From positions 1-52,199 of the IMG/VR virus record IMGVR_UViG_3300046011_003401: a stretch of DNA of 52,199 nt; one strand, written 5' to 3'. The DNA comes from a virus (Duplodnaviria; Caudoviricetes). Shown here one piece after another: positions 7,115-43,496 of the stretch. The position numbers were made by a program, and so were the translations under genes. The stretch's first letter is position 1. Each line of letters begins with the position of its first letter. The notes under the pieces were generated by a model. It searched no databases. It was not told where the DNA came from and saw only the letters and a program-made list of their open reading frames with translations.

Positions 7115-9043
7115 ATGGATATAAAAGGTAAAGTCATTCGACTGGACTCGCTTTTCCAAAAAAGCGCCCCTTTACCCACAACTGGGGAAACTATAGACTC
7201 TATATTTATTGAAGGGTATGCAAATACTACTACGGTAGATAGAAGTGGTGATGTAATCCCTAAAACTGTTTGGGAAAAGGGACTTCAAAATTACCTTAAA
7301 AACCCTATTATTTTAGCGTATCATGACCATGACGAACCTATCGGCAGAATGTCAGAATACAAGATAGAGGATAAAGGTTTATGGATTAAAGCACGTATTT
7401 CTGCAGCCGCAGAAGATGTATTTAATTTAGTAAAAGATGGTGTTCTTACAGCTTTTTCTGTAGGATTCATAATCAAAGATGCAACTTATGATTCAATTAC
7501 TGACCTCTTTATTATTAAAGAGCTAGAGCTACTAGAAATATCAGTAGTATCAGTGCCTGCAAATCAAGATAGTACATTTAGTTTGTCAAAGTCTTTTGAA
7601 AGTGACGATGACTATAATTTATTTAAAAAACAGTTTTCAACTAATGAACCTGCTAAAGAGCAAAAAACATTAGAAGAACCAACCGTTCAACAAAAAGAGG
7701 AAATTTTTATGGATCCAAAAGATTTAGAAGCCTTATTGGCTAAGACTGCAGCTGCTGCTGCTCAAACTGTAATCGACGCTCAAGCTGCTGAAAAAGCTGC
7801 TGATGCAGAAAAAGCTGCTGAAGCTGCTGCCGTTGAAAAACGCATCGCTGACGCTGTTGCTAAAGCTACTGTAGTTACTTCAGGTACTTCAGGTGCTGAA
7901 CAACTTTTAGCTGATATCACAAAACGTTTAGATGCTCAAGAAGTTACTAATAAATCAGCTATCGCTGGCTTAGAAGAAGTAATCAAAGAAAAATCTAAAG
8001 AATTAGAAGCTATTCAAAAAAGCAAAATGAACTTTGCTGGCGATAAAGAAGGTGCTGCTTATGCTGAGAAAGAATCTGCATATCTACTTTCAAAAATCAC
8101 TGGTAAATCTATCCAAGATACTAAATACGGTGCTGGCATCGTTGAAAAAGCAGGAGCTCACGTTCCTTCAGCTACTTGGGAATTAGAAGTTTCATTGAAC
8201 ATGGAAAATGAAATCCGTCGTCGTTTAGTTGTTGCTCCATTGTTGCGTGGCATCAATATGCAAACTAACGTTATGACAATTCCAGTAAACCCAGAAGCAG
8301 GTGATGCAACTTGGATTACTAATGCTCAATTCGGTACAACCGCATCTCCAGGTTCTGCACAAACTCATCAATTGGGTGCTGTAACATTGAATGCATATAA
8401 AGTTGCAACAATGGAATACTTAGCATACGAAGAGGAAGAAGATTCATTGTTAATCTTGTTACCTACTATCCGTGATGCAATGATCCGTCGCGTAGCTCGT
8501 GCTGTTGATAAAGCATACTTAATCGGTGCCGGTTCTGGTTCTGATCCAGTTAAAGGTTTGTCAATCTATGACGCTACTTCAGTAGTTGTTCCAACAAATA
8601 CTGGCGTTGCTTCAATTGCTAACCTACGTGCATTGCGTAAAGATTTAGGTGCTTGGGGTCTAGAGCCTTCAGAATTAGCGTTTATCGTTTCTACTGAAGT
8701 TTACTACGATTTGTTAGATGATACAGCTTTCCAAACTATGGATAAAGTTGGTCCTGCAGCTACATTGTTAACAGGCCAAGTTGGTATGATTGGTAATACA
8801 CCAGTTCTAGTATCTAGCATGTTCCCAGCTAAAGCAGGTGGTGCAGCTACTGCAACTACTAATATCGGTGCATTATGCGTTGCCCCAGCTAACTTCTTAG
8901 CCGGTAATCAACGTGGTCTACGTTTAGATACACAAGATCTAGTAGAAACACAACGTAAAGTTCTAGTAAGTTCATTGCGTACTGGTGTTACTCAATTGAC
9001 TACTAATCTAGGTCAAGGCGTTTCAACATTACGTTGGAGCTAA
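7115..9043 (+). CDS. fused HK97-type prohead protease and major capsid protein, with an internal in-frame capsid start at 7709
   Basis: protease motifs ILAYHDH..PIG, AFSVGF, LLEISVVSVPAN; then GAGG RBS + ATG(7709), an Ala/Glu/Lys-rich coiled-coil delta domain and a T5 pb8-like HK97 capsid; no stop codon between them. Confidence 0.9.
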   Translation: MDIKGKVIRLDSLFQKSAPLPTTGETIDSIFIEGYANTTTVDRSGDVIPKTVWEKGLQNYLKNPIILAYHDHDEPIGRMSEYKIEDKGLWIKARISAAAEDVFNLVKDGVLTAFSVGFIIKDATYDSITDLFIIKELELLEISVVSVPANQDSTFSLSKSFESDDDYNLFKKQFSTNEPAKEQKTLEEPTVQQKEEIFMDPKDLEALLAKTAAAAAQTVIDAQAAEKAADAEKAAEAAAVEKRIADAVAKATVVTSGTSGAEQLLADITKRLDAQEVTNKSAIAGLEEVIKEKSKELEAIQKSKMNFAGDKEGAAYAEKESAYLLSKITGKSIQDTKYGAGIVEKAGAHVPSATWELEVSLNMENEIRRRLVVAPLLRGINMQTNVMTIPVNPEAGDATWITNAQFGTTASPGSAQTHQLGAVTLNAYKVATMEYLAYEEEEDSLLILLPTIRDAMIRRVARAVDKAYLIGAGSGSDPVKGLSIYDATSVVVPTNTGVASIANLRALRKDLGAWGLEPSELAFIVSTEVYYDLLDDTAFQTMDKVGPAATLLTGQVGMIGNTPVLVSSMFPAKAGGAATATTNIGALCVAPANFLAGNQRGLRLDTQDLVETQRKVLVSSLRTGVTQLTTNLGQGVSTLRWS

Positions 9044-14092: not shown

Positions 14093-17000
14093 ATGGCAGC
14101 AAATATGATTAATGTTGGTGTAAATGTTTCGGATAATGGAACAGTAGCCCAACTGCAGGCAAGACTTAAAGCCGCAACCAAAGATTTAGCGTCACTTAGA
14201 AACGTAATGCGCCAAACAGGTTCTGGTGTTGCAGGTATGGGTGGCCCAACTAAGCAAGAGAATATTGATTACCGCAATGCTCGCGGGGTTGCTGGTACAG
14301 GTGGTGGTGGTTCTCGTGACTTTGCAAAACAAGCTCAAGGGCTTGGAGGGTTAGTACGCTTATATGCAACGTTTGCTGCCAATATATTTGCTGTATCAGC
14401 TGCTTTTAATGCGTTAGATAAAGCTGCACAATTTGAACAAATGATTCAAGGTGCCAAAGCACTTGAGGCAACTACCGGTGCAGCATTACGTTCTATTGCT
14501 GGCCAAATGAAGGCTGTAACAGATGGTGCTTTAAGTATGCAAGAATCTATGCGTTTAACTGCATTAGGTTCAGCAGCAGGACTATCTGAAAAGAAAATAT
14601 TAGATTTAACTAAAGGTGCTAAAGGTGCTTCACTTGCACTTGGTCGCGATATGGGCGATTCTATTGACCGTGTAATTCGTGGTGTTGCTAAGTTAGAACC
14701 CGAACTATTAGATGAGTTGGGCGTAGTTACTAGGGCACAAGAAGCATATAAAAAATATGCACAATCTATTGGTACATCTGCAGATGCTTTAACAAGTTAT
14801 CAAAAAACAATAGCATATAGTAATGCTGTTAGCATAGAATTACTTACAAAATTTGGGGCAATAGCGGATAAAGTACCAGCAAATCCTTATGCCAAATTTT
14901 TAGGCCAATTAAAAGATGTAGGAACAGAACTATTAACTTTAGTAAACAATGTAATTACTCCAGTAGTATCAATGCTAGCTAATAATATTGAACTTATGTT
15001 TGCAGGTGTATTACTATTAGTAAAAAGTTTAACACTAAAAGCAATACCAGAAATTAGTAAAATGTTTAGTGTTTCTCCAGCAGTCGTAACTGCTAGACAT
15101 GCTGCTTTAACGTCTTTACTTGCAGATATTGATGCTGGTAATAGGGCTGAAGTAGAATCTACTAGAAAAGCTTCAGCAGAGATTATACAGATAAAAGAGC
15201 GAGAAGCACTTGCGTTATCTAAAATGGGTGCAAGAAATATTAATGCATTGGCAACAGCAGCATTTAAAACTTCTAGGGGTCAAACAGCTAAAAATCTACT
15301 AGAAGTAGGTTCTGTAGGTGCTATTGTAGATGATTCTACACTTAGAAAAGCAATACCTAGTGCCATGAAACGTGAATCAAAAATATTAACTGATTATGCT
15401 AGTGGTACAGGTTCTGCCAAAGAGGCAGACGCAGCAAATGCAAGATATGTAGCTTTAGCTAGTATAGAAAAAGAAATAGTAACAGAAGAAAAAAGACGTC
15501 TAGCATTAACAGAACAAATAGATATAGTATTAAAAGGACAAGAAGCTACAGAATTAAAAATAGCAGATACATTACGTTCTAAAAATAAATATTCTCTAGC
15601 TGAAAGAGAAGCAGCTATATTAAATTTAGAAGTTAAAAAGCTAGAAGGTGCTCAGATAGTACAGAATACACTATTTCTCAGAGGACAAGCAGCTGCTGAA
15701 ATAGAGAGAGCTAAGCAAGCTGTAATAATAGAAGAGGCAAGAAAAGCTAAAACACTTACTTCTGCATTTAATGTACGTGAAGGATATAATAAAGATCCAT
15801 CTGGTAAAGAAAATAAAAACTTTGGATTATCTGGTGAAATGGTACCAAATATATTTGGTAAAATAGAAGAATCTACAGATAGAGTAAAAAGTAAGATTGG
15901 TGAGATGGTATCTAAGGTTGGCTCAGGACTAGGAAAAGTAGTAGGTTTTTTAGGTACTTGGGGTATAGCTGCTATGATAGCATACGAAGCTTTAAGTTTT
16001 TTAGCGGATAAAGCTGGGTTTTTAAATAAAAAAACTGATGAATTAAATACTGCATTAGAAGAAGGAACCAAAGTATTAGAAACAGCAAAGTCTTCATATT
16101 TAAACTATACTAAGGCAGTAACTGCATCTACTTATTCATTGATAGCCTTACAAAGTGCAAATGATATAGCTGCTAATACATTTGAACAAGGTACTGCATC
16201 TATACAGAAACAAATAGAAGTATTTACAGCATGGAGAGAAGCAGGTGGCTGGATATCAAGTTTCTGGGATAAAATAGGTACTAGTAAATTTGATACTTTA
16301 AAAGAAAATATTTCAGGTCAAGTAGCTATTATGTCTAAAGAAGCTACAGGGGCACAAGCAGCAGAATTAAAAGCACTAGAAGAACGTATTTCAGGTACAA
16401 AAGATTCAGCAGAAGGATTACAAATATTAGCTTCAGCATATGTAAGTTTAGAGGCTTCAGCAACTAGAGCAGCTACTGCTAATAGAAATCAAAATTCTTT
16501 CTTAAAAGAGTTTCAAGATAAAGCAAACGCTGCTGGAACAGCTATTGATAAAATAAATGAAAAAGAGTGGATAAAGGATGAAAAACGTAGAACTATTGTA
16601 GAATTTTTAAAAGATTTACAAAAGGGATTAAACGATATAACTTTAACAGCAGATGAAAAAATTAATCTTTTAGCTAAAGTACCTGAAGGACTAAATACTA
16701 AGGCTGGTAAGCAATTAGAAGAAGTACGTAGAGTTGCCGCAGCTATACAAGCAATTACAGAAGCAATAGGTCTTAGACAAAAAGAATTAACTGATGCACA
16801 AGATATTTACTTAGGAAAATATAAGGATATTTCTAAGACAGATAGAGATAAATTAAATACTGGACCATCTAATGTTCGTTTGATGGAACTTGTACAAAAA
16901 GAAGCAGATTTATCACGTAAATTAATGGAAGAAAATCTATCTATTGAAGAAGTATTAAAAATTCAAAGTACACAAAAACTGCTTGCACTTGAAAAAGAGT

Positions 17001-19564
17001 ATGTATATAGTAATCAAAGGGATTTCGAAAATAGAAAATTAGAGGCATTAGATAAATATGCTAAAGATTCAAAAGATTACCAAAGTAAACTAGCTTCTTA
17101 TAATATAGAAAAAGACAAAGAAAGGTTATTACTTTTAAGTAATTGGGAATTTGGTACTAATATATTTGATAAAGCTATTGCATATTTTGAAGCTTGGTGG
17201 AACAGTATTAGTTTTATACCAAATATGCTTAAAACAGATCAAAAACCTACAGCCCCTAAAGCCCCCAAAACTGAAACTACTTCAGCTATGGATATTGCTT
17301 TAAAACCATATGAAAAAGAAATAAAAAGATTACAAGAGCAGTTAAAGCAATTAAATGCCGCAGAAACATTAAAAAAGAATATTGACGAACAAACAACTTT
17401 AGGAACTAATTCTACAGATGCGCAACTAAAACAAAACCAACAAAGAATGGATCTTCTTAATAATGAAATTACCGCACAACAAAAATTAATAGAATTAGAA
17501 GCAGATAAAATAGCAAATGCAGAAAAGTATAGTGGTCTTATTAGTATTGATCTTTTAAATTCTAAAGCAGCTTTAGAAATAACTAAAAATGAAAAAGAAT
17601 TTAAAAAACAAGAATTAGAGGCTCAAATGAGATTTAATTCTACTGAATTTAGCAAAGATTCTGATAAATCTCAAGCAAAAACCATAATGAATGAAGCCGT
17701 CGATGCAGCTAAAAAAGCACAGGAAAATGCAGATGCAAAAGTAAATAGTATTAAAGAAGAAGCTAAAAATGCGGCTAATCTTACAAATTATAAACGTCAA
17801 GAAGGTTTGCAAGCAGATATACTATTAGAAAATAGTAAGTCGGCAGTATCTATAGCTAAAGATCTTGGTAATTTATCTAACCAAGAAGTATTAGATAAAG
17901 AATATATTAATAATTTACAAACTATAATAAATAAAGAAGATGCATTAAATGCTGTTAAAAAACAAGGTAATCTAACAGATGTACAAACACTAGAGTTAGA
18001 GGGATTAGGAAGATCAAAACAAACATTAAACTTAGAAAAAGCAAAAAATGATATTTTAGAAGAAAGAGCAGCACTACAAAGAAAATTCGCTACTGACCAA
18101 GAATCCATACAACAAAAAATAGATGCGGGTTTAAGAAATAATACTTCTACTGTACAACTTGAAGTAGATTTAATACAGCAAAAGATAGCAGAAACTAAAC
18201 GCTTAAATATAGAAAATGGTCAAGATGGTAAAGAACTAGAACGTAATTTAGCATTACATAAAGAAATCTTAGCCTCTTTAGAACGTCAACACGAAGCCAA
18301 AAAACGTAACTTTATGAAAGAAGATAACAAACCACAAATAATCTATGATGAAGCAGCTAAACGAGCACGTGATTTTGCTGCAAACATGAAAGATACTGTA
18401 ACCGGTGTTTTTGATGCAGTTTATTCAGGCATGGATGCTGCTATAGATTCTATTACTACTAAAATGATGAATGGCACTAAAATCACATTTAAAGAAATAA
18501 GTGACTTATTCCGTAATACAGTTGCAGAAGGTTTCAGAGAAATGGCTGCAGAACAGATGAAATCTAGTGCTCGTAATATGATTAGAGATATTATGGGGGC
18601 TGTACTACCTGGTGTAGATATAAGTACTAATGAAGAAAAAGCACTTGATTATGCTAAAGACTCAAGGGATTATCTTAAAATTATTGCAATGGGTACAGGA
18701 GGTGCAGCAGCAGGTAATAGTAATCCAGTAACAGCAGCACCTAGTATTTGGAGCAAGTTATTTGGTACTAGACAAACAGGTGCTGGAGGTTTTGAAGACT
18801 ATAAAAATGCACCAGATACTGTCGATATGACTACTGAAGCAGCTACAGCAGCTAATGAAGCGTACTATGGTTCATTAACTAATATATCAGATGAAGTTGC
18901 TAATCTAAATACAAGTACACCATCTTTATTTGGTGGAATTGCAAATGGTTTTGGAAGTTTATTCGGTAGTAATGGTATCGTAATGAATTTACTAAGTGGT
19001 TTAGGTACTGGTATCGGAGGAATCTTTTCTAGTATTTTTAGTATATTCTCAGGCGGTGGAGCAGGTGGTGGAGCAGGTGGTGGATTAGGTGGTATACTAG
19101 GTAGTATAGGTGGTTTATTTAGTGGTGGTGGCATGGGTGATATTGGTGCTGCTATTGGTAGTTCTATGGGTATGGAAGGTTTTGGAGGTTGGTTATCTGG
19201 ATTATTCTTTGCTAATGGCGGTGTCATGAGTGAGTATGGTGCACTTAAACTAAATAAATATGCTAGTGGTGGTATTGCTAACTCACCTCAAATGGCAGTA
19301 TTTGGCGAAGGTAGAATGAACGAAGCTTATGTTCCCCTACCAGATGGTCGCACTATTCCAGTAACTATGCAAGGTAATACCGGTGGTGGAAGCGGTCCTA
19401 TTAGTGTTGTTGTTAATGTAGATGCTAAAGGTAATACTGATACACAAGCTACTGGTACTACTAATGCCCAAGATGCCAAACAACTAGGTATGATAATCAG
19501 CAGTAAAGTTAGGGAAGAGATTGTAAATCAACAACGTTCCGGTGGTTTGCTCAATAAGAGGTAA
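14093..19564 (+). CDS. tape measure protein (T5 pb2-like N-terminus, lambdoid-type C-terminus)
   Basis: RDFAKQAQGLGGLVRLYATFAANIFA and KLEPELLDELG (T5-like); long coiled coil; FANGG...MAVFGEG...EAYVPL...REEIVNQQRSGGLL (lambdoid). Confidence 0.92.
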   Translation: MAANMINVGVNVSDNGTVAQLQARLKAATKDLASLRNVMRQTGSGVAGMGGPTKQENIDYRNARGVAGTGGGGSRDFAKQAQGLGGLVRLYATFAANIFAVSAAFNALDKAAQFEQMIQGAKALEATTGAALRSIAGQMKAVTDGALSMQESMRLTALGSAAGLSEKKILDLTKGAKGASLALGRDMGDSIDRVIRGVAKLEPELLDELGVVTRAQEAYKKYAQSIGTSADALTSYQKTIAYSNAVSIELLTKFGAIADKVPANPYAKFLGQLKDVGTELLTLVNNVITPVVSMLANNIELMFAGVLLLVKSLTLKAIPEISKMFSVSPAVVTARHAALTSLLADIDAGNRAEVESTRKASAEIIQIKEREALALSKMGARNINALATAAFKTSRGQTAKNLLEVGSVGAIVDDSTLRKAIPSAMKRESKILTDYASGTGSAKEADAANARYVALASIEKEIVTEEKRRLALTEQIDIVLKGQEATELKIADTLRSKNKYSLAEREAAILNLEVKKLEGAQIVQNTLFLRGQAAAEIERAKQAVIIEEARKAKTLTSAFNVREGYNKDPSGKENKNFGLSGEMVPNIFGKIEESTDRVKSKIGEMVSKVGSGLGKVVGFLGTWGIAAMIAYEALSFLADKAGFLNKKTDELNTALEEGTKVLETAKSSYLNYTKAVTASTYSLIALQSANDIAANTFEQGTASIQKQIEVFTAWREAGGWISSFWDKIGTSKFDTLKENISGQVAIMSKEATGAQAAELKALEERISGTKDSAEGLQILASAYVSLEASATRAATANRNQNSFLKEFQDKANAAGTAIDKINEKEWIKDEKRRTIVEFLKDLQKGLNDITLTADEKINLLAKVPEGLNTKAGKQLEEVRRVAAAIQAITEAIGLRQKELTDAQDIYLGKYKDISKTDRDKLNTGPSNVRLMELVQKEADLSRKLMEENLSIEEVLKIQSTQKLLALEKEYVYSNQRDFENRKLEALDKYAKDSKDYQSKLASYNIEKDKERLLLLSNWEFGTNIFDKAIAYFEAWWNSISFIPNMLKTDQKPTAPKAPKTETTSAMDIALKPYEKEIKRLQEQLKQLNAAETLKKNIDEQTTLGTNSTDAQLKQNQQRMDLLNNEITAQQKLIELEADKIANAEKYSGLISIDLLNSKAALEITKNEKEFKKQELEAQMRFNSTEFSKDSDKSQAKTIMNEAVDAAKKAQENADAKVNSIKEEAKNAANLTNYKRQEGLQADILLENSKSAVSIAKDLGNLSNQEVLDKEYINNLQTIINKEDALNAVKKQGNLTDVQTLELEGLGRSKQTLNLEKAKNDILEERAALQRKFATDQESIQQKIDAGLRNNTSTVQLEVDLIQQKIAETKRLNIENGQDGKELERNLALHKEILASLERQHEAKKRNFMKEDNKPQIIYDEAAKRARDFAANMKDTVTGVFDAVYSGMDAAIDSITTKMMNGTKITFKEISDLFRNTVAEGFREMAAEQMKSSARNMIRDIMGAVLPGVDISTNEEKALDYAKDSRDYLKIIAMGTGGAAAGNSNPVTAAPSIWSKLFGTRQTGAGGFEDYKNAPDTVDMTTEAATAANEAYYGSLTNISDEVANLNTSTPSLFGGIANGFGSLFGSNGIVMNLLSGLGTGIGGIFSSIFSIFSGGGAGGGAGGGLGGILGSIGGLFSGGGMGDIGAAIGSSMGMEGFGGWLSGLFFANGGVMSEYGALKLNKYASGGIANSPQMAVFGEGRMNEAYVPLPDGRTIPVTMQGNTGGGSGPISVVVNVDAKGNTDTQATGTTNAQDAKQLGMIISSKVREEIVNQQRSGGLLNKR

Positions 19565-19650: not shown

Positions 19651-19992
19651 ATGGCGAATACCTTTTCATACGTTCCCGATAGGGGTTTCAGTAAGACTAC
19701 CAAGCCTAGAGTATTACTTTATCAGTTCGGAGACGGATATGCTCAAAGAACAGGGGATGGCATCAATAATATGCCTTCAGTATATAATCTAACATTCAAT
19801 GGAAGAGATGTTACCACAGCCGAGGCCATCATAGCCTTTTTAGAGGATACAGAAGGTAGAACATACTTCAACTGGACCCCAGCTGGAGAGACCCAAGAAA
19901 TTAAAGTAATTGCTTCAGAATGGAGTATGGTTCATGATACTTCAATTTCTCGTAATATATCAGTAACATTTACTCAGGTCTTTGACCTTTAG
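19651..19992 (+). CDS. distal tail protein, lambda gpM-like
   Basis: KPRV..QFGDGYAQR..DGIN, IIAFLE...FNWTP, TFTQVF. Confidence 0.88.
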   Translation: MANTFSYVPDRGFSKTTKPRVLLYQFGDGYAQRTGDGINNMPSVYNLTFNGRDVTTAEAIIAFLEDTEGRTYFNWTPAGETQEIKVIASEWSMVHDTSISRNISVTFTQVFDL

Positions 19993-20000
19993 GATAATTT

Positions 20001-20708
20001 ATGCCATTAGACGCACCAGTAAGCATAACTTCCGAGATTCAGAAATTAGATGCTGATTCACTTATAGAATTATATGAGTTAGATACTACTAAACAGGGTG
20101 GACCGATTTATTATTTTCACTCTGATGTTAATACATTAAATGCAGAAGTAGTTTGGCAAGGCATAACCTATGTACCATTCCCACTAGAAGCAACAGGATT
20201 TGAATCTAGTGGCGTAGGTAGTCAAGCAAGACCAAAACTATTATTAGCAAATATATCTGGCATGATAGGTGAGCTAACGCTATCTATGAATGACTTAGTT
20301 ACTTGTAAATTTATACGCAAACGTACTTTTGTTAAATATTTAGATGCTGTAAATTTTCCAGACGGAATTAATCCTACAGCAGATAGTAATGCACACTTTC
20401 CAGATGATATATATTATGTGGATAGAAAAAGTAAAGAAGATAAAATACAAGTAGAATTCGAGCTTGCATCAGCACTTGAACTTACAGGGGTAGTATTACC
20501 ACGTAGACAAATAGTTAAAAATCTATGTTCTTGGAACTATAAAAGTGCCGAGTGTGGATATACTGGAACTAACTACTTCAATGAATTCGACGAACCTTGT
20601 GGAGTAAGCCTCGATAAGTGCGGGAAACGTTTAGGTTCATGTGAGATTAGGTTTGTCAATGAAATACTACCATTTGGTGGTTTCCCTGCAGTAGGATTAA
20701 TAAGATAA
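20001..20708 (+). CDS. tail tip protein, lambda gpL-like
   Basis: LIELYELD, VWQG..Y.PFP, RKRTFVKYLDAVNF, four-Cys C-terminus (CSW...ECGY...DKCGKRLGSC). Confidence 0.92.
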   Translation: MPLDAPVSITSEIQKLDADSLIELYELDTTKQGGPIYYFHSDVNTLNAEVVWQGITYVPFPLEATGFESSGVGSQARPKLLLANISGMIGELTLSMNDLVTCKFIRKRTFVKYLDAVNFPDGINPTADSNAHFPDDIYYVDRKSKEDKIQVEFELASALELTGVVLPRRQIVKNLCSWNYKSAECGYTGTNYFNEFDEPCGVSLDKCGKRLGSCEIRFVNEILPFGGFPAVGLIR

Positions 20709-21421
20709 TGACAATAGAAGAGTTGATTAATACACAAATATATGCACATGCAGAGCAACAAGCTCCTGTAGAGGCTTGTGGTGTAGTTATACTACTAAAA
20801 GGTAGATTAAGATATATACCTTGTACTAATCAATTAAATAGTGAAGATCACTTCGTTATTAGTCCAACTGATTATGCTGATGCAGAAGATTTAGGTGAGA
20901 TAGTTTATATAGTACACTCACACCCCAAGTCATCCCCTAAACCATCTCAAACTGATTTAACTAGCCTAGAATTAGATACCATACCATGGATTATAGTTAA
21001 CCCATTCTTGAAAGAATATACAATAACTAATCCATCTGGATATGTTCAACCTTTAATAGGAAGAACATATCATTATGGTGTAGTAGATTGCTATTCTATA
21101 ATCCGAGATTATTATAAAGAAAAATTCAATATAGATTTATTTAATTATATACGAAAAGATTTATGGTGGGAACAGGGGCAAGATTTATATAATGAGAGAT
21201 TTCCAGAACAAGGTTTTGAAGTCGTAACTGATGGTAGTGTACAAATTGGTGACTTATTCCTAATGCGCGTAGGCGCAAGTACAGAAAATCACGCTGCAAT
21301 ATATATAGGAAATAATAGAATATTACATCACCCAATGAATAGATTATCTTCCGAAGAGATTTATGGTGGTTGGTGGCAAAAAATAACTAGTAAGGTAATA
21401 AGACATAAATCACTTATGTAG
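20708..21421 (+). CDS. tail assembly protein, lambda gpK-like (JAB/MPN + NlpC/P60)
   Basis: EACG, HSHP....PS..D JAMM motif; DCY and NHAAIY...LHH NlpC/P60 motifs. Confidence 0.92.
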   Translation: MTIEELINTQIYAHAEQQAPVEACGVVILLKGRLRYIPCTNQLNSEDHFVISPTDYADAEDLGEIVYIVHSHPKSSPKPSQTDLTSLELDTIPWIIVNPFLKEYTITNPSGYVQPLIGRTYHYGVVDCYSIIRDYYKEKFNIDLFNYIRKDLWWEQGQDLYNERFPEQGFEVVTDGSVQIGDLFLMRVGASTENHAAIYIGNNRILHHPMNRLSSEEIYGGWWQKITSKVIRHKSLM

Positions 21422-21433
21422 AAGGGGGTACAA

Positions 21434-21997
21434 ATGTCCGTCGAATTAAAAACAGTAAAGCTATATGGACATTTGGGCAAAAAATTTGGAAAAAGTTTCC
21501 AACTAGCAGTATCCACACCTGCCGAGGCTGTAAGAGCTTTATCTACTAATATTAAAGGTTTTAAACAGTATTTAACTAAACATAGCGCACCAGGTTATCA
21601 TATATTTATTGATAAAAAAGATTTAGCTCAAGATGAACTCAACTATAAAGTATCTTCTGATATTATAAAAATAGTACCTGTTACAGTAGGTAGTGGTGGT
21701 ATTTTTAAAGCAATAGTTGGAATAGTATTAATTGTAGTTGGTATAGTAACTCAACAGCCTTGGATAACCAAAATAGGTATAAGTATGACTCTTTCCGGTA
21801 TTGCAGAAGTGCTATTTGCACCCCCGAAACCTAAGTCATATAATAGTGAAAAACCTGAAAATAGTCCATCGTATATATTTAATGGACCTGTTAATACTAT
21901 TTCTCAAGGGAACCCAGTATCATTATGTTATGGAAAAGTACGAGTTGGTTCTCAAGTTATATCAGCAGGACTTACATCTAGGGAGATACCAATATGA
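21434..21997 (+). CDS. tail assembly protein, lambda gpI-like (ubiquitin-like), copy 1
   Basis: VKLYGHLGKKFG, AEAVRAL, IKIVPVTVGSGG, SYIFNGPVNT..QGNPV.L.YG...VGSQVISAG. Confidence 0.9.
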   Translation: MSVELKTVKLYGHLGKKFGKSFQLAVSTPAEAVRALSTNIKGFKQYLTKHSAPGYHIFIDKKDLAQDELNYKVSSDIIKIVPVTVGSGGIFKAIVGIVLIVVGIVTQQPWITKIGISMTLSGIAEVLFAPPKPKSYNSEKPENSPSYIFNGPVNTISQGNPVSLCYGKVRVGSQVISAGLTSREIPI

Positions 21998-22545
21998 GTG
22001 AATTAAAAACAATAAAACTATATGGTCATCTAGGTAAAAAATTTGGAAAAAGTTTCCAACTAGCGGTAGCAACACCATCAGAGGCTGTGCGAGCCCTATC
22101 AATAAATTTAAAAGGTTTCAAAGAATATTTAAAACAACATAACTTCCATGTATTTTTAGATAAAATGGATATTGGTAAAGAAGAACTTGGTTCTATTACA
22201 ACTGCAGATATTATAAAAATAATACCAGTAACAGTTGGTTCCGGTGGGTTTTTTAAAGTAGTTATTGGTATTGCTTTAATGATATATGCACCAGAGATGA
22301 GTTCTACATGGTTTTCAGTTGGTGCATCAATGGTTTTAAGTGGCATATCAGAAATATTATTTGCCCCACCAAGAAGAAATAAAGATACTAGTACAGAGAA
22401 GCCAGAAAATACACCTTCTTATGTATTTAATGGACCAATAAATACAACAGGTTCAGGTAATCCAGTTTCCTTATGTTATGGTAAAGTACGTGTAGGTTCA
22501 CAAGTTATTTCAGCAGGGCTTACCTCAAGAGAGATTCCAATATAA
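21994..22545 (+). CDS. tail assembly protein, lambda gpI-like (ubiquitin-like), copy 2
   Basis: same motifs as copy 1; identical C-terminus VGSQVISAGLTSREIPI. Confidence 0.9.
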   Translation: MSELKTIKLYGHLGKKFGKSFQLAVATPSEAVRALSINLKGFKEYLKQHNFHVFLDKMDIGKEELGSITTADIIKIIPVTVGSGGFFKVVIGIALMIYAPEMSSTWFSVGASMVLSGISEILFAPPRRNKDTSTEKPENTPSYVFNGPINTTGSGNPVSLCYGKVRVGSQVISAGLTSREIPI

Positions 22546-25500
22546 TGGCACAAAAAGAAATTATAGGTAGTGGTGGATGTTTTCCACAGTATGCTAAAGT
22601 TCTAACAACTTCTGGGTATAAAAATATATCTGAAATAGTTGTAGGTGATGAAGTAATCTCCTATAATGATACAGGTAGACTAGCTACATCAGTAGTAGAA
22701 GAAGTATTTTTCCATAAAAACAATGAGGTATCAAAATATACTTATTGGGGTGGTGAAATATATGCTACTGCTAATCACTGGGTTTTAAACCAACTTAACT
22801 CATTTTCAGAAATAGGTAATTTATCAACCCATGATTGTTTGGTTGATAGTGATGGTACCCTAAGACCAATGATAGTCTCAGAAGAGGCTGGCATTGAAGA
22901 TGTATATAACCTATCAGTAGTACCAGACCATACTTATATAGTAGATGGTATTCGTGTACATAATGGTGGTGGAGGTAAAGGTGGTGGTGCAAGTCGTCCA
23001 GCAGTAGAAGACCCCAATACATTACGCTCAAAACAATTTGCTAGAGTACTAGACCTAGTTTCCGAAGGGGAAATTGGGGGACTAGTCTCGGGTGATCAAT
23101 CCGTATTTATTAATGATGTACCACTACAAAATGCAGATGGAACCTATAACTTCAGAGATAGTTTTATAGATGTTCGTACAGGTACGCAAAATCAAGCAGT
23201 TATTTCAGATTTAAACTCAGTAGAAAATACTATTAATGTATCAACTAGAGTAGAACGCCCTAAATTATTAGAATCTACATATCCACATGCCACAACAGCA
23301 ACTACAAGTTTAACACTAACTTTAGCTAATCATGGATATTTATCAGGTCAAACTTTATATATAGCTTCTAAAACTGGAACTTTACCAGAAAATATATATA
23401 CAATAAATTCTGTTACTCCGGATACCTATACAATTACAGTTCCAAGTGCAACATATGTTGCTGGAATAGTATATGCCAATGCTAGTTTAGTTAATAATAT
23501 TAAAACCGGAACCCATGCAGCCTCTACTTTAGGAAGTACTAAAACTATAACTAAAACTGCACACGGTTTTCAAGAAGGTGAGTCCATTTATCTATGGGCT
23601 AAAGAAGAGCAAGGTGTTACATATACCATAGGTAAAAAAGGTCGTAGATATACGCCAGCAGGAGATTTCTTTCCACTATGCGTTTATACAGTAAAAACTG
23701 TACCAACCGCTAATACATTCACAGTTTTACTAGATGAACCATTAGCATTGAATGCTTCAAGTGTATTTATGCAAAGAGCAACTGGAACAGTCCGTTCAGT
23801 AACTAACCTAGAAGCAGATGAATGTTATATTACTATGGAAGTACCACAACTTACAGAGCAAGATACAACTACTGGAGATTTACACGGTAGTAAAGTATCC
23901 TTTGTAATTAATGTAAAAAATAGCGAACCTTATTCTAAATATGAAAGAGTAGGATTAAGTTATAATACTAAAAATAATGGTACATTGTCTGGTACCGAAG
24001 TTACAATACGTGATTTAGGTACTTACAATAGTACTTCAGGTAGTAGTTCAGTATTATACGCAACACCACCACCAGATGCTAATTCTGGTACAATGTATAT
24101 GTATGGAAATACAAATAGAAGACAATCAGTAGCTATAAAAGGTTATTCAGTATATACCGAAACAGAGGATGCAATAGCAAGTCAACTGGTACTTGGTTGG
24201 AGAACAACTAGTAATAAACAACAAAATATTTCTATAGGAGTATATAAACGTTTAGTTGGTGCCACTAATTGGGAAATACATGCTACAGTAGCATTTACTG
24301 GTAAGAATGAAACCAGAACAACTGCTTCCCAAGGTTTTGGTATTACTAATTCAGTATCTGTGCCAGTTTACACTACTAAAACAGTATTAGTTGAGCATAC
24401 TTTAGCTATTTATGAATATAAGTGCGAAGTTATTGGAGTTGCACAAGGATTATTTGGTTTTACAAATAGATCCTATACCGTTGCTTTCGATACCTTGGGG
24501 GTAATAGAGGGTAAAACATTAGCTAAATATCAACGTGGTTATACAGTACCTTTAAGGGGTGAAGGTCCTTGGCAAGTACAGGTAATCAGAGTAGAAGAAG
24601 AATCAGTAAAAGCAAGTATTTCAAACGAACTATATTGGAGTACATATACTGAAGTAGTAAAAGCTAAGTTAAACTATCCAAATAGTGCTATGATGTATTG
24701 TGCTATAGATGCTGAACAATTTTCAAGTATACCATCAAGATCTTATGAAATATATGGTATCAAATGCAAAATTCCATCAAACTACGACCCACTTAATAGA
24801 ACCTATACAGGTTTTTGGGATGGTACATTTGTAGTAGATTGGACCGATAATCCTGCCTGGGTATTTTATGATTTAATAACAAATACAAGGTATGGTTTAG
24901 GAGATATAGTAACTGGTAGTTTAGTAGATAAATGGACACTATATTCAATTGCTCAATATTGTGATGGTTCCGTACCTACTGGTTTGGGTATTTCTGGTGT
25001 AGTAGTAGGTTCAATATCTGGAACTACTTTAACTATAACTAACCGAAAAAATCTATCCTCTATAGGAGTAGGTTCTATAGTTACTGGTTTTGGTATAGAA
25101 GAATGTACTATTACTGCACTAGGAACAGGTACCGGAGGTATAGGTACATATACTATTAGTAAAGCGCAATCAGTGCCAGTAGGTTCATCTATTAATATTA
25201 TCATTGATGATGTAGAACCTAGATTTACTTGTAATTTATATTTACAAACCCGAGAAGACGCATATAAAGTAGTATCTAATCTAGCCTCTATATTTAGAGG
25301 TATGGTATTTTGGTCTACTGGTTTAGTTACTGCATCTCAAGATTCTCCTAAATCTGTAGATGCTATATATACAGCTGCTAATGTTATAGATGGTACTTTT
25401 ACATATACTGGTACATCGGCTAAAACGCGTCATAACGTAGTATTAGTTTCTTGGAATAATCCTAAAAATGGTTATGCTATTGAAGTAGAGTATGTACAAG

Positions 25501-28500
25501 ATGAGGCTTCTATATTACAAAATGGTATTATACAAACTGAACTATCTGCCATGGGTTGTACCTCTCAAGGACAAGCCCATAGACTTGGTAAGTGGTTACT
25601 ATATACAGAACAATATGAAACTGAAACCGTATCTTTCAAAACAGGTTTAGATGGATTACTTTGTCAACCAGGTGATGTAATCCAAACCCAAGATCCTTTT
25701 AGATCTGGAATTAGACTGGGTGGAAGAGTAGCTGCTGTACAATATAATACTGGTACTAATGTAATAGTAACTGTTGATAATCCTATAAAATTTACAACAG
25801 GTAAAACATATACTGCACTATTTACAAAAGATGACGGTACAGTTATAAGTTTACCATTATCTAACATATCAAATAATCAAAATCAAATAGACCTAATAGT
25901 TAATACAACGCAATCTTTTATTATTCCAGTAGGTTCAGTATGGATAGTATCAGTTAGTGATTTAGCACTACAATCTTGGAGAGTAGTATCAATATCAGAA
26001 CCTTCAAAAGGTGTTATGGGTATTACTGCTTTAAGCTATAATGAAGAGAAATTTAATAATATAGAATATAATCATAGACTACAACCAAAGAAAATAAATA
26101 CACAAACATTAGTTCCAGAACCAGTAGAAAATATTACTATTACAGAACATATGTATTTAATAGCACCGCAAGTACTAAGTAATATATTATCTATTTCATG
26201 GGAAAGCCCAGATACTACTATAGATACTTATCAGGTAACTTATAAAAATATAACTACAAATAGCAATGAAGTAGTAGTATATAGTAATTTACCAAATATA
26301 GAAATATCTTCTATCTCAGAAGCAGAATATACTATATCAGTACAAGCTATAAATTCTTTAGGTACTAAATCACAAAAAACTGAAGTAAATCATGTAGTAG
26401 TAGGTAAAACAGTAAATCCAGCAGATATAACTAATTTTAATTCTAGTCTAGCAAATGATGGGCTAACATTAAGTTGGTCAGCGGTGCCAGATTTAGATAT
26501 TGAATACTATGAGATTCGTTATGGTACATGGGGTTTAGATTCTGCAAATGCTGCTATATATCGTGGTAAAGATACTCAAGTAACTTTATCAACAAAAACT
26601 TATGTATCTGGAAAAACTCATTTATTTTATATAAAAGCTAAAGATACTTCTGGTAATTGGTCTGCTTCATATACATTATCAGGTAGTTTAATAGATAATA
26701 CAACAGCAAAAATACTTCTTACAAAAACTCCAGCACCTGCTATATTACCAATACTAGTAACTAATTCTGTTTCAAGTGTTAGTAATATAATAGCTTTGCC
26801 AAATCCAGCAACTAATGCGCAGCTTTCATTAAATGGTAATATTCTTAAAGTATCTTGGTCTGCACCAGTAGTAAATAGTAATAATATTTCTACATATGGT
26901 TATAGAATTTTTGTTACATCCAACGGTGTAGAATCAGCTGTAGCAGAAGTAACCGGTACATCATATGAATATTTATGGTTAGATAATATACTATCAAAAA
27001 CTTTCAGAATAGAAACTATTGATAATAGTGGGCAATCAAGTTTACCAGACTTATCAATTTCAAAAACATTTACACTACCAAATCAAGTAAATGGAATAAC
27101 CAGTACATTTTCAGCAAATAAATTAACTTTAAAATGGACAGCACCGGTAGTAGATTCTACAGATGCAGCAACTAAACTATATAGAATATATATAGATTCA
27201 GTGGCCATTGCCGAAGTAACTGGTACTACATATGAGTATACTTGGGCAGATAAAAATCTATCTAGAACATTTTCAATAGAAACAGTAGATATAATAAATA
27301 ATGTATCTCCAAGAGCTTCCGTAACTATTCCTGTATTAGTACCAGCAGCTCCAACTGGATTAACAAATACTTTAACAGGCACAACATTAAGATCTACTTG
27401 GAATCATTCAGTATTAGCAAGCAATAGTTTCCCAATAGCTAAATATAATATATATTTTGGTGATGTGGGAAATCCTATTAAAATAGGGGAAACTGTTGCT
27501 AATTCGTATTCTTTGGAATGGACTTATGGTGCAGGGACAAAAGCCATACATATTGAAGCAGTAGATATTAATGGTAATGTATCAAATACTAGAACTACAG
27601 TAACAACTGCTATAGTACCGCCTAATGCACCTAGTAATATATCGGCAACTATGAAAGAAAGTAAATTATTATTTTCATGGAATCCTGCAACTACTGCAAT
27701 CAATTCTTTACCTATCGAATACTATGAATTACGTGAAGGTGGAACAACTTGGGAAAATGCTACATTTGTAGCTAATATTCCTGCTTCTATTAATATACTA
27801 CAGTATTTATATGGTATAACTAATGTAACAGAGTTATCAACTGTACCGGTAGGTACATTAAAGTATAATCAGGCAAAAGTTTTTAGAATAGCATCAAAAG
27901 ATACTTTTGGTCTAGCTTCTACTACTCAAACAACTGTATCAGTAACTTTAACTAAGCCAAGTGCTATAAATAGTTTAAATGTAAATATTGTAGGTCAATT
28001 TATTAATGCAGCCTGGACTTCTATTATTACAGGCACTTTACTAGATGTATTTACTTTACCTATTGATAGATATGAAATTCGTGCAACCCGATCTGCTAAC
28101 GTAGATGAAACTGCATGGAATAATGCCACATCTTTAGCTTCATTAAGCGGTTCAGCAATAGCACTAGACCCTCCAATTAATCCCAGCGTAGATCCTTTAA
28201 ATAATGCCGATGGAACATGGTACTATTTAATAAGAGCATACGATTCGTTTAATACAGCAGGGGCTTTAGCAAATAAACAACTAACTATAACTAAACCAAC
28301 TAAACCACTTAATTTCTTTAATAAAGTTATTGATAATAATATACTATTAAACTGGGAAGATTCAGCGCAACATAGTTTCCCTATAGCTACATTTATGTTA
28401 AAGAAATCTTTTAGTCCATTAGCAACATATACTCAAGCAGAAACTATTGGTACTAAGTCAGGTAATTTTACTACAGTATTTGAAGAAACCTCTGGAAACT

Positions 28501-29627
28501 TCACTTACTTTTTAGTTGCCATAGATACAGCAGGTAATATTAGTGATATGTCTCATACAAATGCTGTTGTAAATCAACCACCAGATTATGTACTAACTGG
28601 TGATATTTACCGAGATAACTTTAATGTAACAACTTATGGTTCTAATACAGTAACTTCTACTAGAACTAATATAGTTAAATCCGATGCTTTAGGTACTACA
28701 GGTATTAATAAGCTTATTGGTCCTATGAGCCCTACTCAAACTTTTGAGACTCATTTTACTGGTAATTCTTGGACAATTATACAAGATCAACCAAATGCCG
28801 GATATCCTATATATGCACAACCATCAACAAATACTGGTACTTTAACAGAAGTTATTGACTATGGCATTATTTTTAATACCAATCAATATGTATCAATAGC
28901 TACTGATATATCTAATATATCTGGTACAACTGGTACATATCAAGTTATATTAAGTACAAGTACTGATGGTATTACATATACCTCTGCAAGTTCAGCAGTA
29001 CAACCAGGAACCAACATTAATACAACTTTCGGTGTATTTGCAAGTAGTTTTAGATATGTTAAAGTTGAGATAATTTTAAACTCTAATACTACTGGTATTG
29101 ACTTACTTCGTATCAATGATTACAGATTAAAATTAAGTATTAAATATACTAATGATGGTGGTAGTGGTCAAGTATCAGATAATGGAATCTATCAAATAAA
29201 TCTATCGGGTAGTGGAAGTGGTTATACCTCAATTCCTACAGTAACAATAGGTGGAAATGGTACTGGTGCTAAAGCTAGAGCAATTATATCTGGTGGAACG
29301 GTTACTGGTATTGAGGTAACTAACTCAGGTTCCGGCTATACCAGCATACTTCCAGCTAATATTACTATTACTGGCGGTGGCGGTGGCGGTGCTGTAGTTG
29401 CTTCAATCGTTAAAACATCCGCAACTTCAGGAACTATAGTTGCATTTAATTATGATTATTTAGATGTCAGTGGAATACAAATAACTTATGGTGGTACAAC
29501 ACCGGGAATAGCTATCTATGATTTTGTAGATACTACATATCCTAAGTTTTTTAGAGTATTATTATTTAATAATTCTGGTACTCCTATAACTGGTAACTTT
29601 TCATGGTCTGCAAAAGGAACAATATAA
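22545..29627 (+). CDS. central tail fibre / tip attachment protein, lambda gpJ-like, with N-terminal Hint domain, insertions and FN3 repeats
   Basis: VLDLVSEGEIGGL, DAEQFSSIP.RSY...G, WTDNPAWVFYDL.TN.RYGLG, EPRFTCNLY, GCTSQGQAHRLGKWLLYTE; many FN3-like W/Y repeats. Confidence 0.93.
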   Translation: MAQKEIIGSGGCFPQYAKVLTTSGYKNISEIVVGDEVISYNDTGRLATSVVEEVFFHKNNEVSKYTYWGGEIYATANHWVLNQLNSFSEIGNLSTHDCLVDSDGTLRPMIVSEEAGIEDVYNLSVVPDHTYIVDGIRVHNGGGGKGGGASRPAVEDPNTLRSKQFARVLDLVSEGEIGGLVSGDQSVFINDVPLQNADGTYNFRDSFIDVRTGTQNQAVISDLNSVENTINVSTRVERPKLLESTYPHATTATTSLTLTLANHGYLSGQTLYIASKTGTLPENIYTINSVTPDTYTITVPSATYVAGIVYANASLVNNIKTGTHAASTLGSTKTITKTAHGFQEGESIYLWAKEEQGVTYTIGKKGRRYTPAGDFFPLCVYTVKTVPTANTFTVLLDEPLALNASSVFMQRATGTVRSVTNLEADECYITMEVPQLTEQDTTTGDLHGSKVSFVINVKNSEPYSKYERVGLSYNTKNNGTLSGTEVTIRDLGTYNSTSGSSSVLYATPPPDANSGTMYMYGNTNRRQSVAIKGYSVYTETEDAIASQLVLGWRTTSNKQQNISIGVYKRLVGATNWEIHATVAFTGKNETRTTASQGFGITNSVSVPVYTTKTVLVEHTLAIYEYKCEVIGVAQGLFGFTNRSYTVAFDTLGVIEGKTLAKYQRGYTVPLRGEGPWQVQVIRVEEESVKASISNELYWSTYTEVVKAKLNYPNSAMMYCAIDAEQFSSIPSRSYEIYGIKCKIPSNYDPLNRTYTGFWDGTFVVDWTDNPAWVFYDLITNTRYGLGDIVTGSLVDKWTLYSIAQYCDGSVPTGLGISGVVVGSISGTTLTITNRKNLSSIGVGSIVTGFGIEECTITALGTGTGGIGTYTISKAQSVPVGSSINIIIDDVEPRFTCNLYLQTREDAYKVVSNLASIFRGMVFWSTGLVTASQDSPKSVDAIYTAANVIDGTFTYTGTSAKTRHNVVLVSWNNPKNGYAIEVEYVQDEASILQNGIIQTELSAMGCTSQGQAHRLGKWLLYTEQYETETVSFKTGLDGLLCQPGDVIQTQDPFRSGIRLGGRVAAVQYNTGTNVIVTVDNPIKFTTGKTYTALFTKDDGTVISLPLSNISNNQNQIDLIVNTTQSFIIPVGSVWIVSVSDLALQSWRVVSISEPSKGVMGITALSYNEEKFNNIEYNHRLQPKKINTQTLVPEPVENITITEHMYLIAPQVLSNILSISWESPDTTIDTYQVTYKNITTNSNEVVVYSNLPNIEISSISEAEYTISVQAINSLGTKSQKTEVNHVVVGKTVNPADITNFNSSLANDGLTLSWSAVPDLDIEYYEIRYGTWGLDSANAAIYRGKDTQVTLSTKTYVSGKTHLFYIKAKDTSGNWSASYTLSGSLIDNTTAKILLTKTPAPAILPILVTNSVSSVSNIIALPNPATNAQLSLNGNILKVSWSAPVVNSNNISTYGYRIFVTSNGVESAVAEVTGTSYEYLWLDNILSKTFRIETIDNSGQSSLPDLSISKTFTLPNQVNGITSTFSANKLTLKWTAPVVDSTDAATKLYRIYIDSVAIAEVTGTTYEYTWADKNLSRTFSIETVDIINNVSPRASVTIPVLVPAAPTGLTNTLTGTTLRSTWNHSVLASNSFPIAKYNIYFGDVGNPIKIGETVANSYSLEWTYGAGTKAIHIEAVDINGNVSNTRTTVTTAIVPPNAPSNISATMKESKLLFSWNPATTAINSLPIEYYELREGGTTWENATFVANIPASINILQYLYGITNVTELSTVPVGTLKYNQAKVFRIASKDTFGLASTTQTTVSVTLTKPSAINSLNVNIVGQFINAAWTSIITGTLLDVFTLPIDRYEIRATRSANVDETAWNNATSLASLSGSAIALDPPINPSVDPLNNADGTWYYLIRAYDSFNTAGALANKQLTITKPTKPLNFFNKVIDNNILLNWEDSAQHSFPIATFMLKKSFSPLATYTQAETIGTKSGNFTTVFEETSGNFTYFLVAIDTAGNISDMSHTNAVVNQPPDYVLTGDIYRDNFNVTTYGSNTVTSTRTNIVKSDALGTTGINKLIGPMSPTQTFETHFTGNSWTIIQDQPNAGYPIYAQPSTNTGTLTEVIDYGIIFNTNQYVSIATDISNISGTTGTYQVILSTSTDGITYTSASSAVQPGTNINTTFGVFASSFRYVKVEIILNSNTTGIDLLRINDYRLKLSIKYTNDGGSGQVSDNGIYQINLSGSGSGYTSIPTVTIGGNGTGAKARAIISGGTVTGIEVTNSGSGYTSILPANITITGGGGGGAVVASIVKTSATSGTIVAFNYDYLDVSGIQITYGGTTPGIAIYDFVDTTYPKFFRVLLFNNSGTPITGNFSWSAKGTI
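22578..22964 (+). other. 129-aa Hint (mini-intein / bacterial intein-like) domain with Gly at +1
   Basis: block A CFPQYAKV, block B T.NH, block F DVYNLSV..DHTY, block G VHN; flanks GSGG|C and HN|GGGGKGG. Confidence 0.9.
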
Positions 29628-42902: not shown

Positions 42903-43496
42903 ATGGCAACCCCCGCAAAGGTAAATCTAGTAATTTATCAAGGCTCTACTTTTAGCGAAATCCTTCGTTGGGAGAGTAGCAGAAAAGTTTATAAACCTAT
43001 TACAGGTATAACTAATGCAGCGCCAGTTATTATAACTGCGCCGCTTCATAGTGTTCCAGATGGTTGGAGAGTTAGATTTACCAATGTAATTGGTATGAAA
43101 GAAATTAACTCAGCTGCAGATACTTATTCTACAGCAGTATTAAAAACAGAAAATACCATTGAAATTAATGCAATTAATAGTATTGCATATACTCCATATA
43201 CCTCAGGGGGTATTTTAGAATATAACGAACCAATAGATTTAGCTGGATATACAGCACGTATGCAAATACGTAATAAATTAGGTGATACAACATACTTATT
43301 AGATATGACTACTGAAAACGGTAGAATAATTCTTAATAATTCTGTTAAAACTATAGAATTAAAAATTACAGCTACTGATACTGCAGCTATTACTTGGACT
43401 AGCGGTGTATATTCACTAGAACTAGTATCTGCTGGTGGTGTAGTATCAACATTGATGAATGGTACTGTAACTGTAAAACAAGAAGTTACACGATAA
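42903..43496 (+). CDS. fibre-anchoring collar-like protein (T5 p132/LtfC-like) with an inserted E1-FCCH-like domain
   Basis: NLVIYQGSTF...PIDLAGYTARMQIR...GVYSLELV...GTVTVKQEVTR; insert ITGITNAAP...GMKEIN...AYTPYTSGG. Confidence 0.6.
   Translation: MATPAKVNLVIYQGSTFSEILRWESSRKVYKPITGITNAAPVIITAPLHSVPDGWRVRFTNVIGMKEINSAADTYSTAVLKTENTIEINAINSIAYTPYTSGGILEYNEPIDLAGYTARMQIRNKLGDTTYLLDMTTENGRIILNNSVKTIELKITATDTAAITWTSGVYSLELVSAGGVVSTLMNGTVTVKQEVTR

Follow-up and report, generated by a model that had tools for sequence, protein, structure and literature searches.

Type-A bacterial intein-like (BIL) domains are said to go back to the work of Amitai in 2003 and Dassa in 2004. In the accessible text of one report, these domains form an N-terminal thioester and cyclise a C-terminal Asn, cleavage products dominate and some ligation by the freed amino group is seen (PMC4031507); a review describes type-A BILs as cleaving at Asn (PMC7765530). 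In the ciliate Tetrahymena, the BUBL domain BIL2 conjugates a ubiquitin-like (Ubl) domain through an isopeptide bond without ATP, according to the part of the source that is accessible (PMC8616854). Here we describe a Hint domain of this class in TipJ (gpJ), the central tail-tip protein encoded by the linear IMG/VR virus record IMGVR_UViG_3300046011_003401 (52 kb, G+C ∼35%); 'the window' denotes this whole stretch of 52,199 nucleotides. The TipJ Hint follows an 11-residue leader and precedes a Gly-Lys tract. It probably excises itself after translation, as a type-A BIL forming an old, heritable but dispensable cassette that has been gained and lost many times.

The closest described relatives each share part of this arrangement. 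With the type-A BIL of known structure 2LWY, the window Hint has in common the HINT fold, an N-terminal Cys, the TxxH motif, a terminal His-Asn and the absence of both a Cys/Ser/Thr at +1 and an endonuclease, that is, all the sequence features of type-A BILs; both also carry Asn rather than Asp in the V-Y-N-L motif of block F. Its host is, as for type-A BILs, a variable, non-housekeeping protein (TipJ evolves fast, the domain adjacent to the Hint having a mean pairwise identity of 34%). Unlike type-A BILs, however, this host is the N-terminus of a phage tail-tip protein and not a secreted bacterial protein, the flanks of TipJ Hints are near-invariant Gly (−1, +1, +2) with a short conserved leader as N-extein, and the leader motif recurs behind the domain in many members. 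The Tetrahymena BUBL domain (BIL2, 6Y75/6TMM), the best fold match, has the same Gly-Gly | Cys junction after a ubiquitin-type tail. In BUBL, a Ubl domain ending in Gly-Gly stands directly before Cys1, whereas in the window only the 11-residue tail-like leader does, the Ubl being on gpI, and sequence identity is 19–20%; the full Ubl-GG-Hint layout is found in a relative of gpI (P0179). The PT-HINT domains of polymorphic toxins (PF07591) lie just ahead of a short C-terminal toxin module; the window domain, although above the cut-off of that family, precedes the 2,200-residue body of a structural protein. Finally, the phage mini-intein gp41-1 (6QAZ) resembles the window Hint in fold and size (TM score 0.89 on the target, 30% identity) and in its patchy distribution, but canonical class-1 inteins have Cys, Ser or Thr at +1, where TipJ has Gly141, and the window Hint lies outside any conserved enzyme active site. 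The inteins of phiCbK lie in TerL and RNR.

Gene order and families of the gpK, gpI and gpJ module are those of phage lambda. The accessible text of two structural reports describes lambda gpI as a Ubl domain plus a lumen plug, only the C-terminal part, the plug, being seen and the N-terminal domain unresolved, and has gpK absent from virions (PMC10721106, PMC11101478). Unlike the window protein, lambda gpJ begins directly at the Gly-Lys tract, with neither leader nor Hint, and unlike lambda the window has two gpI genes. No description of a Hint or intein in TipJ/gpJ was found in the literature searched.

A type-A BIL domain at the N-terminus of TipJ

The plus-strand TipJ gene (22545–29627; 2,360 residues) starts at an ATG that overlaps the stop of the second gpI gene. 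Its product opens with the leader MAQKEIIGSGG (22545–22577), continues with a Hint domain of 129 residues from Cys12 to Asn140 (22578–22964) and passes through the tract GGGGKGGGAS (22965–22994), the counterpart of the first residues of lambda gpJ, into the TipJ or central tail fibre body (22995–29627; NCBIfam lambda_TipJ, E 2.2e-109, below the 'exception' cut-off of that model; phrog_31 'central tail fiber J', E 2.4e-219). A preliminary description of this DNA had placed leader, Hint and GGGGKGG here, with intact catalytic residues, no endonuclease and Gly at +1. Every one of these elements is present: Cys12, the block-B TxxH motif as Thr75-Ala-Asn-His78, His139-Asn140 and, at +1, Gly141, the first Ser beyond the domain being residue 150 (+10). 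A domain of this length would leave no room for a homing endonuclease.

Pfam PT-HINT matches TipJ residues 19–142 with 30.9 bits against a cut-off of 27.7, and the generic Pfam models Hint and Intein_splicing stay below their cut-offs on the window TipJ. When a 12-row profile of the N-terminus was compared with solved structures, the best match was the C. thermocellum BIL 2LWY (E 5.3e-19), followed by Tetrahymena BUBL BIL2, with mini-inteins only after both. The AlphaFold2 model of the N-terminus has block pLDDT values of 85–96 across residues 11–140 and disordered flanks on both sides. Foldseek searches with this model gave 6Y75 as best hit (E 2e-11), a probability of 1.00 to BIL/intein structures, and a root-mean-square deviation of 1.6 Å to 2LWY at 31% identity. 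Judged by sequence and predicted fold, the window Hint is a type-A BIL (BIL/PT-HINT class) and no canonical intein. The assignments of Hint, gpI and gpK in the window are not chance matches.

A large family in uncultured phages

A search with TipJ residues 1–220 retrieved 242 proteins, and 119 of the 120 listed were TipJ-like with a Hint at the same place; the layout is common to more than 100 related uncultured phages. For comparative work we used the retrieved proteins of at least 700 residues that carry the TipJ N-domain motif, a pool that omits shorter open reading frames (ORFs) and a few TipJ with variant motifs, such as P0113. Among these 173 proteins, 129 have a Hint at the same site (three of them two in tandem) and 44 have none. 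None of the 129 aligned TipJ Hints has lost Cys1, the block-B His or the terminal His-Asn, and the block-B Thr is found in 127/129. Variants were also seen: the TipJ Hints of P0253, P0255 and L063:3582-4360 end in Ser-Asn, not His-Asn, with Cys1 and Gly flanks retained, and the TipJ proteins P0006, P0008, P0110 and P0171 carry two tandem N-terminal Hints with a short Gly-rich linker between them.

The Hint alone, in an exhaustive HMMER search, found 1,512 representatives at E ≤ 0.001, 198 of them at E ≤ 1e-10. The best 150 of the 1,512 comprise 58 unambiguous TipJ whose Hint is N-terminal and 19 further proteins with the Hint in that position but a body not recognised by the TipJ motif used. 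Another 22 are non-TipJ proteins with tandem Hint arrays, 21 are long proteins of pretoxin-like layout in which the Hint lies close to the C-terminus, 10 have other internal Hints and 20 are fragments or short ORFs. Within these 150, the +1 residue is almost always G, K or A, with just two Ser and one Thr. Several non-TipJ proteins (P0193, P0224, P0226, P0227, P0248 and others) have 3–5 tandem Hints with linkers of the form HN|KG(G)(G)C between them, often after a signal-peptide-like start and, in two, with a Tim44-like C-terminal domain; P0230, of 6,790 residues, contains 18 Hint stretches.

Cultured phages gave a different picture. A tblastn search of TipJ residues 1–200 against 50,697 phage records matched 186, none of which (0/186) covered at least 80% of the query. 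Among the 40 matches listed, the Hint part matched only unrelated genes of H1–H8, at 32–34% identity, the other rows being matches to the TipJ part only. The Hint-TipJ arrangement was thus found in none of the 186 matching cultured-phage records. Species-representative genomes yielded eight Hint-TipJ loci, most of them in metagenome bins that span several phyla; a Castellaniella contig of 704 kb carries one, and records of Castellaniella and Oxalobacter (L088 and L083) belong to this set.

The insertion site and its glycine flanks

Over the 132 TipJ Hint units, Gly is found at +2 in all 132, at −1 in 129 (Ser 2, Ala 1), at −2 in 121 (Lys 9, others 2) and at +1 in 106 (Ala 17, Thr 6, Lys 3). 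Leader length varies from 3 to 30 residues across the Hint-bearing family, while the motif [I/V]-x-G-[S/A]-G-G stands ahead of the Hint in nearly all relatives; the residue two before the motif Gly is hydrophobic in 120/125 Hint-bearing and 30/34 Hint-less TipJ. In a comparison of gpJ homologues with and without a Hint at this site, as the preliminary description had suggested, the N-termini of Hint-less TipJ read M-x(n)-[I/V]-x-G-[S/A]-[G/K]-G-G-K-G-G-G-G, so that both the leader motif and the Gly-Lys tract are kept. Seven natural gpI-TipJ fusions (P0131, P0136, P0139, P0153, P0157, P0162 and P0164) retain h-x-G-x-G-G-G-K-G-G-G at their internal junction. Since Hint-less TipJ and these fusions share the motif, the window leader is the native TipJ N-terminus and not a sequence brought by the Hint. 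The Hint sits within the Gly run of the TipJ N-terminus.

Profile positions 155–226 align to residues 2–73 of the lambda gpJ chain 8IYK_J. The Gly-Lys-rich first residues of lambda gpJ match the Gly-Lys tract of the window protein, and therefore C-terminal cleavage alone would yield a lambda-like N-terminus. A Lys lies within the Gly tract in 124/129 Hint-bearing and 38/44 Hint-less TipJ.

Two arrangements follow the domain. In 40/129 Hint-bearing TipJ, as in the window, His-Asn leads directly into Gly(n)-Lys; in the other 89/129, a short linker (for example, GGHRERFP or AGLGLG) separates the domain from a repeat of the leader motif. Leader and downstream copy of the same protein match at 1.84 of 4 variable positions, versus 1.12 ± 0.06 after shuffling (0/2,000 shuffles as high; relatedness uncorrected). 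At 292 identical residues of the two copies (37 loci), the codons are the same in 140 cases and different in 152, with 124 same expected, so that codons differ at roughly the rate predicted by chance, which rules out recent duplication or gene conversion as the source of the repeated motif.

Evolution of and selection on the cassette

Presence of the Hint, mapped onto a FastTree phylogeny of the TipJ N-domain (173 rows), requires at least 19 changes, 9 of them forced by well-supported branches, against a shuffled mean of 39.1; sampling on this tree is uneven, since all Hint-less rows stem from the search centred on the TipJ of the window. That presence is patchy and that relatives lacking the Hint exist argue that TipJ does not require it.

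Mean pairwise identity is 49% for the Hint and 34% for the adjacent TipJ domain (Spearman 0.36 between the two), and in some pairs Hints of 80–88% identity sit on TipJ domains of 27–37%; this contrast is inflated, because the set was collected mainly through similarity to the Hint. Less exposed to this bias is the codon-level comparison: the Hint has a median dN/dS of 0.154 and the adjacent domain one of 0.278 (96 locus pairs with unsaturated dS), the value being lower in the Hint in 72/96 pairs, which are not independent. In the 12 pairs listed, dS of the two regions is of the same order. G+C at third codon positions is 0.163 in the Hint and 0.12–0.20 in its neighbours; composition thus gives no signal of a recent horizontal arrival and fits an old, ameliorated cassette. 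The window's closest relatives are 92, 92 and 86% identical over residues 1–220, and 74, 71 and 58% over residues 150–700. No decayed Hint copies were seen in full-length TipJ genes, the three Ser-Asn Hints being the sole variants.

Predicted self-excision and the maturation-switch alternative

Because the chemistry of type-A BILs is documented, self-excision by cleavage, perhaps with ligation by aminolysis, is the most likely activity of the TipJ Hint. The domain would fold once TipJ has been translated. An N–S acyl shift, aided by Thr75 and His78, would then let Cys12 form a thioester with Gly11, and cyclisation of Asn140, aided by His139, would cut the HN|G bond, freeing a TipJ body that starts GGGGKGGG... 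and matches the start of lambda gpJ. Without a side-chain nucleophile at +1 there would be no branched intermediate, and the thioester would be resolved by hydrolysis, which would discard the leader, or by aminolysis: in a fraction of molecules the α-amine of Gly141 could attack the thioester, giving ligation as proposed for type-A BILs. The preliminary description had noted that BILs lacking a +1 nucleophile cleave or ligate in this way, in agreement with the accessible text of PMC4031507. The cassette would be an old heritable part of lambda-like tail-tip modules, gained or lost many times; its sites, in TipJ and once in a gpI homologue, have the ubiquitin-tail-like motif [I/V]-x-G-[S/A]-G-G. 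It would stay intact mainly because a TipJ unable to shed its Hint would be useless.

Several points weigh against so simple a reading. We infer processing and its products from the fold, family, catalytic residues, flanks, distribution and selection observed. Cys1 and block B are kept in all 129 proteins, including the 89 with a second leader copy downstream; as C-terminal cleavage alone would complete TipJ in those 89, mere removal leaves selection on thioester formation unexplained. Conservation of the Hint exceeds that of its host domain (49 versus 34%, in the set chosen largely by Hint similarity). The leader copies co-vary yet differ at synonymous sites, which points to both peptides being held by selection and not to recent duplication. 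Taken together, conservation of the N-terminal catalytic residues and the co-variation of leader copies under selection argue that selection may act on more than removal of the Hint.

The same observations favour a domesticated maturation switch, in which the Hint, or Hint plus leader, would be kept because it is beneficial. The TipJ N-terminus might be blocked until the trimer has formed or its gpI, gpL or gpK partners are placed, or the Hint might act as a removable folding aid; self-cleaving chaperone domains are found at the C-termini of some tail fibres. Purifying selection is strong over the whole Hint and exceeds that on the host domain in most pairs (72/96, as above), the N-terminal catalytic residues persist even where the second leader copy makes ligation needless, the leader copies vary together over different codons, and full-length genes offer only the three Ser-Asn variants instead of decayed copies. 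Conservation alone is no proof of benefit, however, because non-excising mutants of a selfish insert would also be purged. Moreover, 44/173 TipJ do without the Hint after at least 9–19 gains or losses, and lambda and all matched cultured-phage records (0/186 covering at least 80% of residues 1–200) manage without it. The preliminary description had put the switch first, and had named a sporadic distribution typical of a selfish intein among the findings that would speak against it. Such a distribution was found in part, as the changes on the TipJ tree show, and Hint-less relatives keep the N-terminal motif. A switch is therefore not borne out as the leading explanation; we regard it, in either form, as unlikely, if still deserving serious attention.

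Ubiquitin-tail-like sites in gpI and TipJ

The two tip proteins are connected by their Gly-rich motifs. Both plus-strand gpI genes of the window encode a Ubl domain that ends in PVTVGSGG, followed by a hydrophobic segment and a C-terminal domain: paralogue 1 lies at 21434–21997 (Pfam Lambda_tail_I, 36.3 bits; Ubl at residues 6–87, PVTVGSGG at 82–89) and paralogue 2 at 21994–22545 (38.3 bits; PVTVGSGG at 78–85). Such tandem paralogues, here with identical tails, also occur in L002, L007 and L024, most related loci having a single gpI. At the family level, the leader of TipJ has the overall pattern of the gpI Ubl tail, P-h-h-x-G-[S/A]-G. The GSGG shared by leader and gpI Ubl domains, to which the preliminary description had drawn attention, is real in the window, and the resemblance extends to the family motif and to P0179; exact identity is not general, the residue after the Gly agreeing in 28/57 loci versus 25.1 expected, so that co-variation of gpI tail and TipJ leader is not significant (822/5,000 shuffles as high). 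Informally, we observed that gpI with G-[S/A]-K often accompany TipJ with G-A-K.

P0179, matched by the window Hint at E 1.7e-29 and 47% identity, is a gpI homologue whose residues 4–113 align with the Ubl part of the window protein and 261–374 with its C-terminal part. Its Hint is placed exactly between the Ubl end ...IIPVIEGAGG(G)n and the GGGGKGGG plus hydrophobic segment of gpI. In the Hint tree it falls among TipJ Hints, without strong support. Because P0179 bears its Hint after the gpI Ubl, the cassette occupies ubiquitin-tail-like Gly-Gly sites in both tip proteins.

The gpK-like protein of the window (20708–21421, plus strand) combines an N-terminal JAB/JAMM peptidase (residues 9–97; Pfam Prok-JAB, 55.4 bits) with a C-terminal NlpC/P60 domain (residues 118–231; NLPC_P60, 57.7 bits). 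The JAMM protease, described earlier as intact, is so: E22, H70, H72, S80 and D83 (E...HxHx7SxxD) are invariant in an alignment of 26 gpK sequences, as are C128, H195 and H208, the Cys-His-His of NlpC/P60. The Hint had also been tied to this neighbouring protease, a tie that is weakened here: a JAMM-bearing gpK ORF stands upstream of TipJ in 61/67 loci, Hint-bearing and Hint-less alike, which equally rules out an association of Hint presence with loss of the JAB gene. A complex prediction for gpK (26-row alignment) with TipJ residues 1–160 scored 0.00, against a mark of 0.32, and is not used as evidence either way. We know of no demonstration that gpK cleaves gpI, nor of any demonstrated substrate of the gpK JAB domain.

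A broader scheme, which we consider improbable, would unite these elements. The [I/V]-x-G-[S/A]-G-G motifs would be natural processing sites of lambda-like tips, after the gpI Ubl and after the TipJ leader, maybe cut by gpK-JAB; a Hint specialised for them would form its Gly-thioester at the same bond, and so release the leader or Ubl without ATP or E1, or, in the way of ciliate BUBL, transfer it to the conserved Lys or the Gly amine of the Gly-Lys tract, giving a ligated or branched tip protein.

More doubtful still is E1-free acyl transfer in the manner of ciliate BUBL, the Gly-thioester being captured by the Lys of the Gly tract or by an amine of another tip protein to give an isopeptide or branched product. 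In its favour, BUBL BIL2 is itself the best fold match, nearly all Hint-bearing TipJ (124/129) offer a Lys in the tract, the P0179 Hint comes after a genuine Ubl Gly-Gly, and no residue would hinder such chemistry less than Gly at −1 and +1/+2. Yet that Lys is also present in 38/44 Hint-less TipJ and is not tied to the Hint. In the window, with the Ubl domains on separate proteins, the thioester would activate only the 11-residue leader (3–30 residues in the family), which makes a conjugation role unlikely; for this reason, the covalent linkage in the tip through a GG-thioester that had been proposed earlier finds no place here, since neither gpJ itself nor a Ubl could be linked. Nor did any result touch on the interaction with Bil-type defences that had been suggested earlier.

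A Hint that remains attached to TipJ in the tip lumen, with a structural role or as an ejected domain, is very unlikely. No observation points to it directly, the precedent being internal cargo: in the accessible text of PMC10721106, gpI lies in the lumen of the lambda tip together with the end of gpH. Against it, the residues for both cleavages are kept in 129/129, and room for three 14-kDa domains would have to be found in a lumen already occupied by the gpI tripod and gpH coiled coil (PMC10721106). An ordinary class-1 mini-intein with canonical splicing can practically be dismissed: HINT fold, Cys1, TxxH, His-Asn, missing endonuclease, sporadic distribution and the Thr at +1 of 6/132 units would suit it, but +1 is Gly here and in 106/132 units, the first Ser comes only at +10, and the nearest sequences and structures are BILs.

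Genomic context

The structural module of the window is of siphovirus type, with a large terminase, a portal, a prohead protease-capsid fusion and a T5 p143-like tail completion protein, and the tail genes follow the lambda order H-M-L-K-I-J. Upstream of gpK, all on the plus strand, lie the genes for the tape measure protein (14093–19564), gpM (19651–19992; Pfam Phage_min_tail, 91.5 bits) and gpL (20001–20708; Phage_tail_L, 219.7 bits). The C-terminal part of the tape measure protein (window 18800–19300) has long Gly-rich runs (GGGAGGGAGGGLGG...); Gly tracts are thus a general feature of the window's tip module.

Elsewhere in the window, a single ORF (7115–9043) joins the prohead serine protease (Peptidase_S78) to the HK97-type capsid domain. 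The non-structural part of the phage encodes a protein with PAS-domain matches in two regions (44195–45133; residues 76–188 and 200–294) and a PhoH-like ATPase (49473–50165). A match to the ubiquitin-E1 FCCH domain at 42903–43496 is below threshold (25.4 versus 29.5 bits); the product is probably a small β-barrel in a fibre-region protein, and gives no evidence for an E1.

Implications

Type-A BIL domains are a known class; what is new here is the TipJ host, the site and the Gly flanks. The TipJ Hints form a large, coherent and apparently undescribed BIL/PT-HINT clade whose host, a phage structural protein, and position are both defined, and whose Gly residues at −1, +1 and +2 are near-invariant. 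This clade offers a natural test bed for how Hint domains act without a +1 nucleophile, by cleavage or by Gly-to-Gly ligation through aminolysis, and ligation of the latter kind could serve traceless protein ligation. If the Hint self-excises, the mature N-terminus of many metagenomic tail-tip proteins would lie ∼140 residues into the annotated ORF. Finally, because the cassette follows a ubiquitin-type tail not only in TipJ but, in a relative, also in gpI, beside a JAB peptidase, the old question of the role of gpK and of the gpI Ubl in tail assembly becomes directly testable.

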